A DNA stretch of 64,000 bases from Myxococcales bacterium. Lineage in GTDB: Bacteria; Myxococcota_A; Polyangia; Polyangiales; Houyiibacteriaceae. Below the pieces are notes generated by a model, which saw only the letters and a program-made list of their open reading frames with translations, was not told where the DNA came from and ran no database searches. Each line of letters starts with the position of its first letter. Positions within the stretch are counted from its first letter, which is position 1. Where the stretch lies: the NCBI GenBank assembly GCA_012744445.1, contig JAAYBZ010000138.1, positions 845 to 64,844 on the forward strand, written 5' to 3'. Below are positions 18,407 to 26,214 of the stretch, in pieces. A program made the position numbers and the translations under genes.

Positions 18407-19633
18407 ATGAGTCGCCGTCGCAAAGCGATCCTCGCCCTCTTCACGCTCCTCGCGATCCTCGCCGCCGCCGGGGGGGTCGTCGTCCATCGACGCGGCTTCG
18501 ATCGCATCGCCATGGGGCTCACGCTCTTCCGCGGCGTCGCGCAGGGCGAGAACTTCCGGCGCGCGTACGAGATCTTCCCCTCCACCACCATGCCCGCCTC
18601 GACGCGGCCGTATCGCTTCCCCGAGGGCGCGCCGATCGAGCTCCCGAAGCGCTTCACCTACAAGGGTGAGGATCGCGACGTGGAGACCTTCCTCGCCGAG
18701 ACGGACACCAGCGCGCTCCTCGTCCTCCGCGGGGGCGAGCTCCGCTACGAGCGATACTTCGCGCCGGGCGGGCCCGACGTGCACTGGATCTCGTGGTCCG
18801 TCGCCAAGAGCTTCATCTCGGCCCTCGTGGGCATCGCCGTGCACGAGGGGCACATCCGGAGCATCGAGGAGCCCATCTCGGACTACGTCCCGGCGCTCCG
18901 CGGCTCGGGCTACGAGGGCGTGCGCATCAAGGACGTGCTCCAGATGTCGTCGGGCGTGCGCTGGGACGAGACCTACCTCAACCCCGTGAGCGACGTGAAC
19001 CGCTTCGGCGCCGTGCTCTTCCTCGGCGGCTCGCTCGACGCCTTCACGGCCTCGCTCGTGCGCGAGCGCGAGCCCGGCACCTTCAACCACTACTCCTCGG
19101 CCGACACGCACGCGCTCGGCATGCTCCTCACCGAGGCCACCGGCCGCACCGTCACCGACTACATGCACGAGAAGCTCTGGGAGCCGCTCGGCATGGAGAG
19201 CCGCGGCCACTGGCTCGTCGACGACGAGGGCATGGAGATGGTCTTCGGCGGCCTCAACGCGATCGCGCGCGACTACGCCAAGCTCGGCGAGCTCTACCGC
19301 CTCCGCGGCGTCTTCCGCGGCGAATCGATCGTGCCCAGCGAGTGGGTCGACGCCTCGATCCGCCCCGACGCGCCGCACCTCACGCCCGAGGCCAAGAAGG
19401 ACGACGTCTTCCCCGTCGGCTACGGCTATCAGTGGTGGATCCCCGAGGGCGACGAGGGCGAGTACTCCGCCATCGGCATCTACAACCAGTTCGTCTACGT
19501 GAACCCCACGCGCGACGTGGTGATCGTCAAGCTCTCGGCCTTCCGCAACTACGCGCTCGGCATCGACGAGAGCGCCTACCGCGAGCTCGAGACGATCGAA
19601 TTCTTCCGCGCGATCGCCCGCTCACTCGGCTGA
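18407..19633 (+). CDS. serine hydrolase, beta-lactamase/PBP4*-like
   Basis: N-terminal membrane anchor, SxxK motif (WSVAKSF) and a YSSADTHALG block. Confidence 0.75.
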   Translation: MSRRRKAILALFTLLAILAAAGGVVVHRRGFDRIAMGLTLFRGVAQGENFRRAYEIFPSTTMPASTRPYRFPEGAPIELPKRFTYKGEDRDVETFLAETDTSALLVLRGGELRYERYFAPGGPDVHWISWSVAKSFISALVGIAVHEGHIRSIEEPISDYVPALRGSGYEGVRIKDVLQMSSGVRWDETYLNPVSDVNRFGAVLFLGGSLDAFTASLVREREPGTFNHYSSADTHALGMLLTEATGRTVTDYMHEKLWEPLGMESRGHWLVDDEGMEMVFGGLNAIARDYAKLGELYRLRGVFRGESIVPSEWVDASIRPDAPHLTPEAKKDDVFPVGYGYQWWIPEGDEGEYSAIGIYNQFVYVNPTRDVVIVKLSAFRNYALGIDESAYRELETIEFFRAIARSLG

Positions 19634-20308
19634 GCGCGGGGCCGCGCGCGCGAGCACGGCCGGCATCGCGCCGTAGTAGAGCGCGTTGGGTAAGAGGCGC
19701 ACGAGGAAGCCCACGTCCGACGCCTCGCCGGGGAGCCCGAGGATGAGCGCGTCGGCGAGGCTCCACGACGCGTACCAGGCGAGCGCGAGGCGATCGAGCG
19801 CGCGATGCCAGCGGATCGCCTCGGGCGAGCCGAGCCGCGCTTCGACGTAGGGCCGACGGAGCACGATCAACGCGACGAAGAGGAGCTCGTAGACGAGGAA
19901 GAGGACGCGCGGCTCGGCGCTCACGAGCGCGAAGCTCACGACGAGCTCGGACGCGATCGGCACGACGAGCATCCAGCCGAGCGCGCGGAGGAGCCCACGT
20001 GTCGTGATCTCCACGCGCCCGTCGCCGCGGAGCGACTCGGCCGCGAGGAGGTAGCGGAGATCGCCGAGGAGCACGAAGGCGAGCGTCACCCACGTGGGGG
20101 CCGAGCCGGGGAGCCGGCCGATGCCGATCACCTCGTCCGCGGAGAACCACGCGTCCACGCAGGCGAGCAAGAAGAGCGCCGCCGCCGCGCGCCGCACGCT
20201 CGCGTGCCGTCCGGAGAACGCCCGCCGCGCGATCACGTAGCCGAGCACGGCCGAGGCGAGGAGGAGGCCCGGGTGCTGGGCGTGGCTCGCATAGAAGGAC
20301 TCGAACAT
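19622..20308 (-). CDS. hypothetical polytopic membrane protein
   Basis: 228 aa from ATG 20308, whose start overlaps the stop of the upstream gene by 1 nt (TGATG). About six hydrophobic helices. The rest of the 504-aa track ORF is a shadow. Confidence 0.55.
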   Translation of the reverse strand: MFESFYASHAQHPGLLLASAVLGYVIARRAFSGRHASVRRAAAALFLLACVDAWFSADEVIGIGRLPGSAPTWVTLAFVLLGDLRYLLAAESLRGDGRVEITTRGLLRALGWMLVVPIASELVVSFALVSAEPRVLFLVYELLFVALIVLRRPYVEARLGSPEAIRWHRALDRLALAWYASWSLADALILGLPGEASDVGFLVRLLPNALYYGAMPAVLARAAPRSAE

Positions 20309-21123
20309 CACTCCTCGCCCGGCGGGAGCTTCCGCCCCGCCATCGCGCGGAGGTAGGCGACGAGCTCCCGTGCGCGCGTCTCCCGGTCGTCCACGTGCTT
20401 CGAGAGACCCGGCATCGCCGTGCGGAAGCGGACCGAGCGCGGCTCGAGGATGAAGCGCTCGATCCAGGCCTCGTCCATGTACTCGGTGATGCTCGCGGGG
20501 AAGTTCAGCTCGGGCCCGACGCGCCCTCCGTCGCCATTGATCGAATGGCAGCGCGCGCACTCGGTGCGGAAGGTGGCGAAGCCGCGCGCGACCTCGGGCG
20601 ACGCGGGCTCGGGCGGTCGCATGCGCGCGTAGCGCTCCGCCTCGCTCGCGATCTCGATCGAGACGATCTGGTAGGGCCACTCCCAGCCCACCTCGGCGCC
20701 GCCTTCGACGGGCTCCCAGACGAGGTAGGCCGGCGCGAGCGGGACGCGCTCCACCTCGTCTCCGTCGCGCTTCTCGACCGAGAAGTCCGCGTCCTCCCGC
20801 GCGAGGGCGAGGTGCGCGCGGTGGCGGAGGAGCCGCTCGACGGAGACGCCCGCGCGGTAGCCGTCGGCGCAGCCGAAGACCACCTCGTCGGCCTCGCGCC
20901 AGCCGGGCCCGAAGCGCTCGTCGAGGAGCTCGACGGCCGGCACGGTGAGGAAGCGCACCCGACGCCTCTCGTAGGGATCGTCCACCGACACGGGCACGAG
21001 GCGCGTGCGGAGCGTCTCCACCTGGATCGGCGGCGCGCCTTCGACGGCGATCTCGGCGCCGCCGCTCGGCGCGGCGCGCCCGCAGGCCACGAGGAAGAGG
21101 GCGAGGAGCGAGAGGGATCTCAT
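20308..21123 (-). CDS. lipoprotein: SUOX-fold (molybdopterin-oxidoreductase-like, PruR-like) domain fused to c-type cytochrome domain
   Basis: Lipobox LFLVAC. N-terminal domain VVFGCADGYRAGVSVERLL...LAPAYLVWE...WEWPYQIVSIEI. C-terminal CARCH heme motif with an axial Met candidate (TAMPG). Confidence 0.65.
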   Translation of the reverse strand: MRSLSLLALFLVACGRAAPSGGAEIAVEGAPPIQVETLRTRLVPVSVDDPYERRRVRFLTVPAVELLDERFGPGWREADEVVFGCADGYRAGVSVERLLRHRAHLALAREDADFSVEKRDGDEVERVPLAPAYLVWEPVEGGAEVGWEWPYQIVSIEIASEAERYARMRPPEPASPEVARGFATFRTECARCHSINGDGGRVGPELNFPASITEYMDEAWIERFILEPRSVRFRTAMPGLSKHVDDRETRARELVAYLRAMAGRKLPPGEE

Positions 21124-21662
21124 GGCGAGAGCTCACCGAGGGCGATCTCGACGCGCGTCGTGGACTCGGGCTGCGAGGGCCCGCGCGCGCACATGCAGAG
21201 GTGCTGGGCCTCGGTGATCACCCGTGCGCCGCGCGCGCCGCCGTGCTCGATCAGCGCCTCGGCGATCTCGCGCGTGAGGTCTTCCTGGATGCAGAAGCGC
21301 CGGGAGAGCACGTCGACGAGGCGCGGCAATTTCCCGAGCCCGAGGATCCGATCGCCCGGCAGGTAGCTCACGCTCGCGCGCCCGAAGAACGGCAGGAAGT
21401 GGTGCGCGCAGAGCGAGTAGAAGCGCACGTCGTGGACCGTGACCACGCCGCGGCGCTCGCCCGCCTCGAGCACGCGCGTCGTCTTGAGCACGGAGGCGGG
21501 ATCGACGGCGTAGCCCGAGAGCAGCTCGCGGAAGGCGCGCTGGATCCGTGGCTCGCTCTCCGGATCGGCGAACCACGCGAGCGCGCGCGGATCGTCCGTG
21601 ACGTGGGCGCGGAGCCACGCCGCGATGCTCGGCGCGCGATCGCCTTCGTCGGATTGGGTCAT
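21120..21662 (-). CDS. folE: GTP cyclohydrolase I
   Basis: FYSLCAHHFLPFFG, ILGLGKLPRLVD, RRFCIQEDLT and EAQHLCMCARG (zinc ligands Cys/His/Cys). The stop overlaps the start of the next gene (ATGA). Confidence 0.9.
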   Translation of the reverse strand: MTQSDEGDRAPSIAAWLRAHVTDDPRALAWFADPESEPRIQRAFRELLSGYAVDPASVLKTTRVLEAGERRGVVTVHDVRFYSLCAHHFLPFFGRASVSYLPGDRILGLGKLPRLVDVLSRRFCIQEDLTREIAEALIEHGGARGARVITEAQHLCMCARGPSQPESTTRVEIALGELSP

Positions 21663-21748
21663 CTCTCTACCGTCCCCGGGCGCGCGACGTCCGCCTCACC
21701 CCGACGAGGTCCACTCTACCGCCGCAGGCGGCGAGGACCCAAACCGCG

Positions 21749-22930
21749 TCAGTCTTCCCAGGTGGCCGAGGGGAAGGCCGGGCCGGGCTTGGCGAAGAGG
21801 AAGCCCTGGAGGTGCGTGCACTGGAGCCGCACGAGCATGTCGCGCTCGGACTTGGTCTCGACGCCCTCGCCGACCACCTCGATGCCCATCGAGCGGCCGA
21901 GGTTCGCGAGCGCGAGCACCACGCGCTGCTTCACCGGATCGCGATCGATCCCGCGCACGAGCGACATGTCGAGCTTGACGAGGTCGGGGCGCACCGAGGC
22001 GAAGTAGCTCAGGCCGGCGTACCCCGCGCCAAGATCGTCGACCGCGATGCGGTAGCCGAGCTGGCGGAGGCGCGTGAGCCGGCTCTCGAGCTCGGCGATG
22101 CCCTCGAGCGTGGTGCGCTCGGTGATCTCGAGGACCACGCGGTGCGCCTGGCGCGAGAGCGGCGCCGTCGCGTCGAAGAAATCGGCGTCGGCGAGGTCCA
22201 CGGGGTGGACGTTCACGAAGAAGACGGGCCCGCGCGGCACGTGCTCGATCGCCTCCGCGATGCGCGCGCGTATCGTGCGGCCGAGGAGGTGGAGGTTGCC
22301 GAGCTTCTCGGCCGCGTCGAGCACCGCGCCCGGGTGAGGGAGCGAGGGCTCCTCGGTGCGCATCAACGCCTCGAAGCCGTAGGTCTGCCGGAGATCGGCG
22401 GAGATGATCGGCTGGAAGGCGATCCACAGCGTGTCGAGCGCGTTCTGGAAGACCCGCTCGAGCTCCTTGCGGCTCCCCATCGGATCGGTCGCGCGGATCA
22501 TCTGGCGCGCGTAGAGCGCGTCGCGGACGGTCCGGAGCAGCTCCTCGGAGGCGATGGGCTTGAGCAGGTAGCGGAAGGCGCCGTGCTCCACCGCGCCGCG
22601 CGCCGAGTCGATGCTCGGCTGACCGGTGAGGAAGACCACGGGCACGTCGAGCGAGCGCGCGCGCACCGCGCGGAGCAGGTCGAGGCCGTCGCGCCCCGGC
22701 ATCCGCAGGTCGGTGATGAGCATGTCGAAGCGCTCGGACTCGATCCGCGAGAGCGCCTCGTCGGCCGAGGTGGTGGCCACGATCTCGTGACCCGCGCGGG
22801 TGAGGATCCGCTCGAGCAGGCGCAGCACCGCGGGCTCGTCGTCGACGACGAGCAGACGGCCGAGGATCGACTCCTTGTTCGATCCGCCGTTCGACGGCGG
22901 CATCTCGGAAAGACTCTGCGCCGGCATCAT
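21749..22930 (-). CDS. response regulator with EAL c-di-GMP phosphodiesterase domain
   Basis: REC domain (LLVVDDEP...MLITDLRMPGRDG). EAL domain (YGFEALMR, DDLGAGYAGLSYF, KLDMSLVRGI, GEGVET...QGFLFAKP). Confidence 0.85.
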   Translation of the reverse strand: MMPAQSLSEMPPSNGGSNKESILGRLLVVDDEPAVLRLLERILTRAGHEIVATTSADEALSRIESERFDMLITDLRMPGRDGLDLLRAVRARSLDVPVVFLTGQPSIDSARGAVEHGAFRYLLKPIASEELLRTVRDALYARQMIRATDPMGSRKELERVFQNALDTLWIAFQPIISADLRQTYGFEALMRTEEPSLPHPGAVLDAAEKLGNLHLLGRTIRARIAEAIEHVPRGPVFFVNVHPVDLADADFFDATAPLSRQAHRVVLEITERTTLEGIAELESRLTRLRQLGYRIAVDDLGAGYAGLSYFASVRPDLVKLDMSLVRGIDRDPVKQRVVLALANLGRSMGIEVVGEGVETKSERDMLVRLQCTHLQGFLFAKPGPAFPSATWED

Positions 22931-22945
22931 GACCAGGGGTTTACA

Positions 22946-24229
22946 CTAACGAGTGAATTTTTCTACTGCTTTGTATTCCGCATGTCGAGTGCCCAGTTTC
23001 GACGTGACCCAGGCGAGGCTTTCGGCCTGCACGCGCGCGTCCTCGTACTCGGCGAAGGCCGGCGAGGCGCGGCGCAGGAGCTCACGCCCCGCGATGAAGG
23101 GCGCGCGCGCGAAGTGGTAGAGGTGGAAGGGCCCGGCCGAGGGCACCCCGAATTGGGCGCGCGTCCACGGCGGGACGAACCACGAGACGAACGCGAGCTC
23201 GCGGCCGTATTCGAGCCATTCCGCGAGGGAGCCCCCCTTGGGCTCGAAGGCCTCGACGTAGGACTGGACGAGGTGGCGCCCGTCGTCGCCCGAGCGGTTG
23301 CAGGACTTCACCTCGCTCGCCCACATCAGCGCCGCCGCCTCGCCCACGTTCGCCGGGTACCAGGGCGGCTGGACGCCCATGAGATGGCCGACGTAGCGCC
23401 AGAAGTGGAGGAGCGCCTCGATCTCGTCGCGCGTGGTGAGGTAGCCGAGGAGGCGCAGGCCGTAGCCCGGGATGAAGCTCCCACCCATGAGCGTGAGGAG
23501 CGCGTCGCCCTGGCTGATGGGCACGCCCCACGCGTCGAGATCCCATTGGGGATGCGAGAGGAGCCCGGCGCGGACGAAGACGTGCATGAGCCGTACGCGG
23601 AGCGCGGTGCGGACGCCGACGCCGCGCGGCCGGAGCCCGCCGGGCGCGGCCACGTCGATCCAGAACGAGGCCGTCTCGAGGAAGCGGTTCAGGGCGGTCT
23701 TGCCCGCGTAGGCGCCCGTGAAGACGAGGGGCTTGGCCACGGAGCTCTCGCGATAGCCGTGGAGCGTGATCGCGCCCGCGAAGCTGAAGAGGTCGCGCCC
23801 GAAGCGCCGGAAGACGCGGGCGCCTTCCTCGACGCGCGCCCAGTCGACCCACGAGGGCACGGTCTCGATCTCCTCGAAGAGGGCACGGAGCGAGGCGGGG
23901 GCGTCGGGGATGGCGTCCACCCCGTGCTCGAGCGCGCGATCGACCAGCGCGCGCCCCGCGTCCTGGCCGCGCGTGAGGTAGACCTCGGCGACGAAGCGCT
24001 CGGCCACCGGGTCGGCGCGGTAATACGACTCGCCCCAGATGCGCACGGTCTCGTCGTCGAGCGCGCCGGGTGGCCCGAAGATCGAGGCGACGACCTTGCT
24101 CGCGGCCCGGTAGAAGGGTTTGTCGCGGTTCTCGAAGAAACGGAACTCACCGGGCAGCTTGCCGGCGTAGGCGGCCGGATCGAATTGCACGCGGTGGGTG
24201 GTGGGCTTCTCGCTCGGTTCGGCGCTCAT
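22946..24229 (-). CDS. DUF2236 (MpaB/Lcp-family) oxygenase-like protein
   Basis: 427 aa by residue count from MSAEPSEK. Resembles the ER-bound oxygenase MpaB / rubber oxygenase family (RVRLMHVFVR, PISQGDALLTL). The start overlaps the kinase stop (ATGA). Confidence 0.6.
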   Translation of the reverse strand: MSAEPSEKPTTHRVQFDPAAYAGKLPGEFRFFENRDKPFYRAASKVVASIFGPPGALDDETVRIWGESYYRADPVAERFVAEVYLTRGQDAGRALVDRALEHGVDAIPDAPASLRALFEEIETVPSWVDWARVEEGARVFRRFGRDLFSFAGAITLHGYRESSVAKPLVFTGAYAGKTALNRFLETASFWIDVAAPGGLRPRGVGVRTALRVRLMHVFVRAGLLSHPQWDLDAWGVPISQGDALLTLMGGSFIPGYGLRLLGYLTTRDEIEALLHFWRYVGHLMGVQPPWYPANVGEAAALMWASEVKSCNRSGDDGRHLVQSYVEAFEPKGGSLAEWLEYGRELAFVSWFVPPWTRAQFGVPSAGPFHLYHFARAPFIAGRELLRRASPAFAEYEDARVQAESLAWVTSKLGTRHAEYKAVEKFTR

Positions 24230-26214
24230 TCGGTCCTCGTCGTGAAGAGCTCCTCGACGCGTGCGACGAGCTCTTCGGCGGTGAAGGGCTTCTTCAGGAA
24301 CGACCCTCGGAGGGTGGGATCGGCCTCGTCGAGGCCGTGCACCTGCGCGTAGCCGCTCAGGTAGAGCGCGGGCAGCGAGGGCCTCCGCTCGCGGAGCGCG
24401 CGCACGAGATCGACGCCGGTCATCCCCGGCATCATCACGTCGGTGACCACGGCCGCGACCTCGTCGACCGTGGCGTCGTAGAAGGCGAGCGCCTCCTCGC
24501 CGCCTGCCGCGAGGTGCACCCGATAGCCCGCGTCTTCGAGCACGGCCCCGAGGATCCGCCGCACCGAGGCCTCGTCGTCGACGACGAGCACGAGCTTCTG
24601 GTCCTCGTCGACGGCGCGAGGCGGCGCGTCCTGCGACGGCTCGGGCTCGGCGGAGGAGGAGACCTCTTGGGCGCGCGGGAAGTAGAGGCGGACCACCGTC
24701 CCCTCGCCGGGCTTCGAGTCGATGAGGAGCCCGCCGCCGTATTGGGAGACGATGCCGTAGACCATCGCGAGCCCGAGGCCCGTGCCGCCCTGCCCCTTCG
24801 TGGAGAAGAAGGGCTCGATGGCGCGGTGCTTCACCGCCTCGGGCATACCCGCGCCGTCGTCCTCCACCTCGAGCATCACGTAGTCGCCGGACGCCACGGT
24901 GGGCTGCACGTCGAAGATCGGCGTGTCCAAGCGCACGTCGCGGAGGCGCACGCGGATGTGCCCATCGCCCTCGATCGCGTCGCGCGCGTTGATGACGAGG
25001 TTCAAGAGCACCTGGTCGAGCTGCGAGGGCTCCGCGGTGATCTTGCCCGTGCACCCTTCGGTGGAGAGCTCGATGGAGATGGCGTCGCCGACGACGCGGC
25101 CGATCATCCCGAGCGATTCGCGCACCACGCGGACGGGATCGACGGCGCGCGTCTCGAGCACCGCCTGCCGCCCGAACGCTAGGAGTCGATGCGTGAGGTC
25201 GCTCGCCCGCTCGACCGCGCGCGAGATCTCGTCGAGCGAGGGATCGGAGATCCGCCGCTTCATGCTCGCGGCGTGTGCGCCGATCACCGTGAGCAGGTTG
25301 TTGAAGTCGTGCGCGATCCCTCCAGCGAGCCGGCCGAGCGCCTCCATCTTCTGGGCCTGGAGGAGCTGCGCCTCGTATCGCTTGCGCATCGTGACGTCGA
25401 GCGCCGTGCCGACGTAGCCCGTGGGCTTGCCGTGGTGATCGAAGATCGGCGTCGCCTCGCCGAAGACGTCGACGATCTCTCCGTCGGTGCGCACGATGCG
25501 GTATTCCCACGGCCCGATCGGCTCGCCGAGGCTCACGGCGGCGGCGATGCCCGTGATGCGATCGCGATCATCGGGGTGGACCATCGAGAAGTAGAGCTCG
25601 GGTGTCACCTTCACGTCGAAGGGCACGCCGCACATCCGGTAGATCTGCTCGGACCACTCGGCCTCGCCCGTCTCCGGGTACCACTCGAAGGTGCCCACCT
25701 TGGCGATCTGCTGCGCGCGGCGGAAGGCCTGCTCACGGCGCCATAGGTTGGCTTCGGCCTCGACGCGATCCGTCATGTCGAGGAGCGCGCCGACGAACCG
25801 CAGCGCGCGCCCCGACGCGCCCGAGGCGACCTGGCTGATCATGTGGATGTGGCGGATCGACCCATCGGGGCGGAGCACGCGGAAGTCCACCGGCTCGGCC
25901 TCGATCGCGGCCACGGCGCGGCGCGAGACCTCGCGGACCCACGCCGCGTCATCTTCGTGGATGCGCGCGAAGAACGCCTCGGACGAGGGTTTCACGCTGC
26001 GGTCGTATCCGAGGATGACGTAGAGCTGCTCCGACCAATGAATGACGTCGTTCTCGAGATCCCACGCGAAGGTCCCGACGTTGGTCACCTTCTCGGCCAT
26101 CGCGAGGAGCTGCTCGCGCACGTCGAGAGCGAAGGCGTTCGCGAGCGCCGGCCGCTCCGGTCCCTCGAGCGCCCCCCCCATCGTCCGAGACGACTGGTCC
26201 TCGGGTTCCTCCAT
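24226..26214 (-). CDS. soluble hybrid sensor histidine kinase (2 PAS, HisKA, HATPase, REC)
   Basis: PAS repeats ([34 protein letters not shown]), H-box [12 protein letters not shown]-boxes, and a C-terminal REC ([10 protein letters not shown]...[12 protein letters not shown]). Confidence 0.85.

Follow-up and report, generated by a model that had tools for sequence, protein, structure and literature searches.

A predicted pterin module made of a folE paralog, a PruR-type cytochrome c lipoprotein and a seven-helix membrane protein in a Myxococcales genome

Pterin signalling has been defined only recently, and so far with one type of protein, PruR, and one kind of output, DcpA/DTB. Systems of the PruR-DcpA and of the PruR-DTB kind, with PruR structures from A. 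tumefaciens (Atu3496; 7kos, 7kou), Vibrio (7kom, 7kp2) and Klebsiella (7rkb), are the nearest described relatives of the genes presented here (PMC11194511; PMC13259868). In PruR, Tyr104 and Trp160 sandwich the pteridine ring and Asn102 contributes a hydrogen bond (PMC11194511); groups C and D of PruR carry an aspartate at the position of Asn102 (PMC13259868). We analysed a stretch of 64,000 nucleotides (nt), hereafter the window, from a Myxococcales bacterium (GenBank assembly GCA_012744445.1, contig JAAYBZ010000138.1, positions 845 to 64,844; host assembly of 3.77 Mb, 94% complete). It encodes, in succession, a GTP cyclohydrolase I (folE), a lipoprotein that combines a PruR-type domain with a cytochrome c, and a seven-transmembrane (7TM) protein. 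A first reading of this DNA (the original prediction) had suggested that these genes may be a pterin-linked module tied to the turnover of cyclic di-GMP (c-di-GMP) through a REC-EAL gene directly upstream. We favour, with some reserve, the view that the three genes form a self-contained pterin module.

The predicted pterin pocket and the haem of the lipoprotein

Four genes follow each other head to tail on the minus strand, in the order REC-EAL, folE, lipoprotein gene and membrane protein gene. The last three, with the relevant features of the lipoprotein, are:

21120..21662, minus strand: folE paralog, GTP cyclohydrolase I of type IA, 180 amino acids (aa), first gene of the trio
20308..21123, minus strand: lipoprotein gene, 271 aa, predicted PruR-type pterin-binding domain and class I cytochrome c
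21082..21123, minus strand: signal peptide with lipobox LVAC (Cys14), read from the translation (MRSLSLLALFLVAC)
20629..21054, minus strand: PruR-like degenerate SUOX-fold domain, residues 24-165, matched to PruR by the N-domain profile
20857-20865 and 20671-20673, minus strand: Asp87-Gly88-Tyr89 and Tyr151, respectively, pocket positions in the N-domain
20338..20598, minus strand: cytochrome c domain, residues 176-262 (PF13442 and PF00034)
20545-20559 and 20413-20415, minus strand: CARCH (Cys189-His193) and presumed axial Met237, respectively
19622..20308, minus strand: seven-helix membrane protein gene, 228 aa, third gene of the trio, unnamed family

Both overlaps noted in the original prediction are present. 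The folE gene ends in TCG CCA TGA and the lipoprotein gene begins at the ATG of this ATGA; the lipoprotein gene in turn ends in GAG GAG TGA, whose final A begins the membrane protein gene (TGATG), an overlap of 1 nt.

The lipoprotein was modelled with AlphaFold (AF2) on an alignment of 31 homologues, with a mean predicted confidence (pLDDT) of 89.5. When this model was compared to the PDB using Foldseek, the first seven matches were all PruR structures (7rkb, 7kom, 7kou, 7kp2, 7kos), with target-normalised template modelling (TM) scores of 0.61-0.73. The molybdoenzyme YedY (1xdq) comes only at rank 9, and most of the remaining list is taken up by class I cytochromes c. A profile built from 45 sequences of the N-domain alone also found PruR, with E values of 4e-4 for Vibrio vulnificus (7kom), 0.011 for Agrobacterium (7kos) and 0.055 for Klebsiella (7rkb). 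The direct Pfam search had failed: PF00174 gave no match at E <= 0.1 on the whole lipoprotein and a marginal one on the isolated N-domain (E 0.093, 12.7 bits against a cut-off of 24), with similarly weak matches in 12 of the 45 members. Both the fold and a family profile were therefore needed to recognise this domain. The proposal that it would turn out to be a truncated SUOX-type fold is thus borne out by Foldseek and by the N-domain profile, and not by PF00174.

In the profile alignment, Asp87-Gly88-Tyr89 of the lipoprotein falls on Asn102-Asp103-Tyr104 of PruR, and Tyr151-Gln152 on Trp160-Gln161. Asp87 and Gly88 are invariant both in the 31 full-length sequences and in the 45 N-domains; Tyr89 is invariant in the former and conserved to at least 90% in the latter. 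The position of Tyr151 is occupied by a tryptophan in many family members. Since Asp87, Tyr89 and Tyr151 align with the PruR contacts, and an aspartate is already known at the position of Asn102, the pterin pocket appears to be conserved in a conservative form. The N-domain contains no cysteine. At the position of the molybdenum (Mo) ligand it has Pro47-Tyr48, aligned with Pro69-Trp70 of PruR, and the homologues have Pro-Tyr or Pro-His there, never a cysteine; the loss of this ligand, which the original prediction proposed to check, is thereby confirmed. Judging from its predicted structure and its alignment to PruR, the N-domain of about 140 aa is a PruR-type, degenerate and shortened SUOX fold with a predicted pterin pocket.

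The only domain that Pfam recognises on the full lipoprotein is the cytochrome c at residues 177-259. The haem-binding motif announced for it is there as CARCH, and the CxxCH residues (Cys189, Cys192, His193) are invariant in the 31 full-length sequences. Met237-Pro238, with a conservation of at least 90%, falls on the axial methionine when aligned to class I cytochromes c. By its sequence, the C-terminal domain is a class I cytochrome c, with both CxxCH and a distal methionine. The signal peptide ends in Leu-Val-Ala-Cys14 and a cysteine stands at the matching place in many homologues, a sequence signature by which the lipoprotein is exported and extra-cytoplasmic.

A first search found 33 homologues, and species-representative genomes contain 393 relatives. 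The family comprises 1135 clusters at 50% identity, mostly of 260-300 aa, which corresponds to the fusion form. Where its members have a name in databases, it is just "c-type cytochrome", so the pterin domain is hidden from database users. The description of the protein as a novel haem-fused form holds in so far as cytochromes do not occur in the two PruR papers (PMC11194511; PMC13259868), but not in the sense of a rarity, because the fusion is already a large family. A side observation concerns P0129, a protein of 2440 aa matched by the N-domain profile in 16 separate stretches, which may be a giant repeat protein of PruR-like modules.

The folE paralog, the membrane protein and the conservation of the trio

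In Pfam, the folE gene of the window scores as a GTP cyclohydrolase I far above the cut-off (PF01227, 6.6e-44, 149.9 bits against 27). Like other type IA enzymes, the FolE clade to which it belongs keeps the zinc and catalytic motifs CxHH, QE and HxC..RG (CAHH, QE and HLCMCARG), and differs from them in being short (170-180 aa) and in having an N-terminal segment of its own. With NCBIfam TIGR00063 the protein reaches 118.7 bits against a cut-off of 181.6, which points to a divergent subclade; the other folE gene of the genome also falls below this cut-off. This second copy, 40% identical to the first, encodes 186 aa with a canonical N-terminus and lies beside a divergently oriented ribA-like GTP cyclohydrolase II gene (L002, contig C156, about 823-2040). 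It is probably the housekeeping copy, and from their sequences the gene in the window is a second, divergent paralog with intact catalytic residues. The worry that folE might be the sole housekeeping copy, with no conserved linkage, is thus removed. Other pterin genes in the genome encode PTPS/QueD, FolB and a pterin-4a-carbinolamine dehydratase.

The closest genome, a relative of the same genus that is 93% complete (G001), has only a housekeeping-type folE, and neither the lipoprotein nor an operon-type folE, so the trio is patchy even within the genus. Relatives in the family that have the lipoprotein do carry an extra folE of the window's type. FolEs of this type make up a clade that counts at least 543 clusters, most of them from Myxococcota, and in the loci examined its gene always adjoins a PruR-cytochrome c gene. 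PDB entry 9ujf, a "GTP cyclohydrolase 1" of 197 aa for which we found no describing paper, matches the FolE of the window at E 1e-60. It is 57-66% identical to all operon-type FolEs, their special N-terminal segment included, and by sequence belongs to their clade.

The third protein of the trio has no match in Pfam, NCBIfam or PDB sequences. Its AF2 model (pLDDT 94.6) is a bundle of seven helices with a short beta-hairpin between helices 2 and 3. The positive-inside rule applied to the sequence suggests that the N-terminus is outside and the C-terminus inside, with buried Asp, Arg, Tyr and Trp residues. Eight residues are invariant in the family (Asp52, Asp83, Arg85, Glu141, Trp182, Asp186, Arg204, Asn208), and their positions in the predicted helices would line a polar cavity inside the bundle. 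No cytoplasmic output domain, no conserved WX7E motif and no conserved histidines for haem b are present. The top Foldseek matches are microbial (type 1) rhodopsins, which share the helix arrangement and the hairpin (TM 0.5-0.6, E 6e-3 to 9e-2). We nevertheless rejected a retinal rhodopsin, since helix G lacks the lysine and has the invariant Arg204 instead, and at the sequence level the protein resembles neither PF01036 nor any chain in the PDB. As a separate observation, the 7TM gene and a convergent PF00144 beta-lactamase-family gene (18407-19633) share 12 nt at their 3' ends (19622-19633).

The conservation of this arrangement was followed in a first set of 87 loci. Besides the window, it contains five context loci, of which one is a duplicate contig, and 80 loci from genomes. 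A folE of the window's type lies directly upstream of the lipoprotein gene in 16 of them; the trio is complete in 12, including the window, and in the other four FolE adjoins the lipoprotein gene. The membrane protein gene accompanies the lipoprotein gene, usually directly downstream, in 15/87. An independent test set consisted of five members of the FolE clade picked by FolE similarity alone, and in all five the FolE gene is followed by a lipoprotein homologue and then by the membrane protein, mostly with overlaps of 1-4 nt. Altogether the order folE, PruR-cytochrome c, 7TM occurs with tight coupling in more than 20 loci, whose carriers are mostly Myxococcota. The expectation that folE and the lipoprotein gene would co-occur in other genomes therefore proved right: their linkage is conserved, and translationally coupled in many. 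Conserved synteny rules out a chance adjacency, because the same order and short overlaps recur in these independent loci.

In the family tree, the window falls in a well-supported clade with Sandaracinaceae loci, and it is the deeper lineages of Myxococcota and Bdellovibrionota that hold the linked forms. The clades of nitrifiers, methanotrophs, alphaproteobacteria and Bacteroidia consist of stand-alone forms, and the 7TM gene was not found in four genomes with a stand-alone homologue, using a search whose positive control matched. The constant core is thus the lipoprotein, and in the linked lineages the trio.

In relatives, the trio is usually accompanied by an additional enzyme that acts on lipophilic substrates, in most loci a CarF/PEDS1-like desaturase (PF10520), in others a cytochrome P450 or Metallophos-GT1 fusion. 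The desaturase gene is near the lipoprotein gene in 12/87 loci, and three relatives of the same family have desaturase, folE, lipoprotein and 7TM genes in this order. The others are:

L115 2701-7484 and L116 2729-7485: Metallophos and P450 (the latter without signal peptide) flanking the trio
L118 6043-8478: Metallophos-GT1 glycosyltransferase fusion flanking the trio
L005 5001-6691 and 6930-8401: deep branch with no folE, where a creatininase-family gene takes its place and overlaps the stop of the lipoprotein gene, with 7TM and CarF-like genes on the opposite strand

The Metallophos and P450/GT1 genes could encode a neopterin-triphosphate phosphatase and a tailoring enzyme, or lipid enzymes.

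The frequent presence of the desaturase raises an alternative in which the genes of the window are what remains of a lipid-oxygenase cassette: FolE would provide a tetrahydropterin to a CarF/PEDS1-like desaturase, the same lipid chemistry would be the task of the cytochrome and of the 7TM protein, and the window would have lost the desaturase. Tetrahydrobiopterin serves alkylglycerol monooxygenase, which gives this idea a precedent, and the CarF-like gene is the immediate upstream neighbour of FolE, frequently with an overlap, in 10/87 loci as well as in L090-L092, L114 and L117. No relevant literature was found on such a folE-desaturase cluster. Compared with CarF/PEDS1 proper, these proteins of relatives have the PF10520 His-box type and reach 124 bits with NF045946 against a cut-off of 500. 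However, the window and five further loci (L027, L045, L115, L116, L118) keep FolE, lipoprotein and 7TM without a desaturase, and conversely L007 has a desaturase without FolE. A CarF-like gene is absent from the window and was found nowhere in the host genome, either with PF10520 or with the protein of a relative, an absence that at 94% completeness is not proof. In addition, the His boxes of the desaturase lie in Arg/Lys-rich, probably cytoplasmic loops, so that a direct feed from a periplasmic haem is unlikely; for the same reason we rejected, as the main idea, the periplasmic cytochrome c as a cytochrome b5-like donor to the desaturase. Taken together, this origin of the trio appears improbable to us.

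The REC-EAL neighbour and the weaker alternatives

The original prediction connected the trio to the gene upstream of folE, which belongs to the following features:

21749..22930, minus strand: REC-EAL response regulator, 393 aa, Pfam REC and EAL; a neighbour outside the conserved module
21663..21748, minus strand: spacer of 86 nt between REC-EAL and folE
22946-26214, same strand: upstream part of a tightly spaced unit of PAS hybrid kinase, MpaB/Lcp-type (PF09995) oxygenase and REC-EAL

If the REC-EAL protein were the output of the trio, the module would report the state of periplasmic pterins to c-di-GMP turnover, as PruR does through DcpA. Several features fit this idea. The two genes are on the same strand, and the gap is indeed 86 nt, from the REC-EAL stop at 21749 to the folE ATG at 21662. 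It contains no promoter-like or terminator-like site, in a scan ill-suited to Myxococcota of 70% GC, and folds no better than shuffled sequence (z = 0.05), so that no signal for or against a shared transcript was recognised in it. The Pfam scores for REC (5e-30) and EAL (4.5e-47) are strong, and both the EAL motif and the acidic DD..D residues of the receiver are readable. An EAL gene also precedes the homologue in a single Nitrosospira contig out of the 86 other loci, but this EAL is unrelated. For the record, it lies in L048 (896-1564), about 250 nt upstream of a stand-alone homologue, and is missing from other Nitrosospira loci.

Co-transcription of REC-EAL and the trio is possible, but functional coupling is unsupported. 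REC-EAL stands beside the trio only in this window as against the 86 other loci, an adjacency unique among about 100 loci in all, and neither GGDEF nor EAL was found in any of the 11 contexts annotated with Pfam. REC-EAL and the upstream PAS hybrid kinase have no hydrophobic segment at their start and thus read as soluble, which makes it unlikely that they touch a periplasmic protein; the locus has no DcpA-type partner with its periplasmic domain. The natural unit of REC-EAL seems rather to be the kinase-MpaB pair, since the oxygenase start overlaps the kinase stop on the same strand and REC-EAL follows the oxygenase gene after only 15 nt. We consider an output through c-di-GMP quite improbable, and it would be wrong to take the neighbouring gene for the module's output. 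What survives of the original proposal is the link to pterins, carried by the PruR-type pocket, the extra folE and their conserved coupling, and what falls is the tie to c-di-GMP turnover.

The window contains a minimal trio without desaturase, joined in a unique manner to a kinase/oxygenase/REC-EAL unit. The MpaB-type enzyme may fill the oxygenase slot that CarF-like proteins or P450 occupy in relatives, although this is a single instance.

A quite different reading takes the N-domain for a true molybdenum cofactor domain, and the lipoprotein for a small oxidoreductase, similar to sulfite dehydrogenase or to MsrP, that carries its own cytochrome c acceptor. SUOX enzymes are often paired with cytochromes c, and SorU (4pwa) and SoxCD (2xts) are found among the fold matches together with YedY; the weak PF00174 matches in some members would also agree with it. 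On the other hand, the Mo-ligand position offers no cysteine, the domain is as short as PruR where the chain of YedY has 263 residues, and the best matches by fold and by profile are PruR proteins and not enzymes, with PF00174 remaining well below its cut-off. Such an enzyme is very unlikely here. That a housekeeping folE merely sits beside an unrelated cytochrome, for which nothing speaks except the general frequency of chance neighbours, deserves practically no credit, given a second folE in the genome and a coupling conserved across families and phyla.

Proposed mechanism and comparison with known systems

The reading that we favour, as the somewhat likelier one on the strength of predicted structures and alignments, is that of a three-gene pterin module in which FolE would ensure the supply, a pterin pocket would be wired to haem c, and the 7TM protein would be the membrane partner. 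We infer here that a pterin is bound, which pterin it is, that electrons are transferred and in which direction, and what the 7TM protein does. In such a module, the FolE paralog would make 7,8-dihydroneopterin triphosphate from GTP in the cytoplasm, separately from the housekeeping folE, and a pterin derived from this product would reach the periplasm; PTPS/QueD, FolB and pterin-4a-carbinolamine dehydratase may contribute to the module. The pterin would then bind to the lipoprotein in its PruR-type domain, where Tyr89 and Tyr151 would stack on either side of it and Asp87 would form a hydrogen bond with it. The haem c, with His193 and Met237 as ligands, may exchange electrons with the bound pterin or set its binding through its own redox state, so that the lipoprotein would be either a redox enzyme of the pterin:cytochrome c type or a pterin sensor gated by redox state. 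Tetrahydropterins readily reduce ferricytochrome c, which makes an electron transfer between pterin and haem plausible. The 7TM protein could act as membrane partner, either by exporting the pterin or by receiving the signal.

Several observations weigh against this interpretation. Most members of the family, those of nitrifiers, methanotrophs and Bacteroidia, are accompanied by neither folE nor the 7TM gene, so the domain does not need a dedicated pterin supply. No pteridine reductase or epimerase is encoded in the operon. The accessory genes of relatives point to lipid chemistry, which a pterin module does not explain, and the fold match of the 7TM protein is weak (E about 1e-2).

A bolder version, which we regard as unlikely but worth stating, would be a complete pterin redox shuttle across the envelope. 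In it, the exporter of pterins that has long been sought, or else a partner that binds pterins in the membrane, would be the 7TM protein. The lipoprotein would be a pterin:cytochrome c oxidoreductase, the first of its kind, through which electrons pass between the periplasmic electron pool and a tetrahydropterin that has been exported. The shuttle would serve or sense the oxidation of lipids by the attached oxygenase, CarF-like or P450 in relatives and possibly MpaB/Lcp-type here, where it may have been newly wired to the kinase and REC-EAL.

A first comparison for the pterin module is offered by SUOX enzymes that work with haem proteins (SorAB, SorT/SorU, SoxCD, chicken sulfite oxidase and YedY/MsrP-MsrQ), in which a haem protein is likewise linked to a pterin-site domain of this fold. 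In MsrP-MsrQ the domain is moreover coupled to a membrane partner, as the lipoprotein would be to the 7TM protein. Unlike these enzymes, the lipoprotein has no Mo-ligand cysteine, its cleft is truncated and it lacks a dimerisation domain; unlike MsrQ, its 7TM partner lacks the conserved histidines for haem b.

The closest comparison remains PruR. Common to both are a Cys-less, shortened SUOX fold of about 140 aa, export, an aromatic sandwich with an Asn/Asp contact, and a tight operon with a membrane protein gene. PruR is a single domain of about 170 aa, whereas the lipoprotein is longer, lipid-anchored and fused to cytochrome c, and has a Tyr or His in place of the tryptophan of the Pro-Trp pair. 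The partner also differs, being a 7TM protein of 228 aa without output domain instead of a DcpA-type sensor whose periplasmic domain carries WX7E. No GGDEF/EAL or kinase output follows downstream, in contrast to PruR-DcpA and PruR-DTB, and the operon includes a dedicated folE.

The family thus adds to pterin signalling a predicted pterin pocket joined to a haem, together with its own pterin-synthesis gene. It extends beyond the Proteobacteria covered by the PruR survey to Myxococcota, Bdellovibrionota, Bacteroidota and nitrifiers, and therefore to phyla outside that survey, with cultured nitrifiers and methanotrophs among its carriers. The invariant 7TM partner is a concrete candidate for testing. 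Widespread, unannotated and experimentally tractable, the family is best regarded, from its alignments and models, as a variant of the PruR type.

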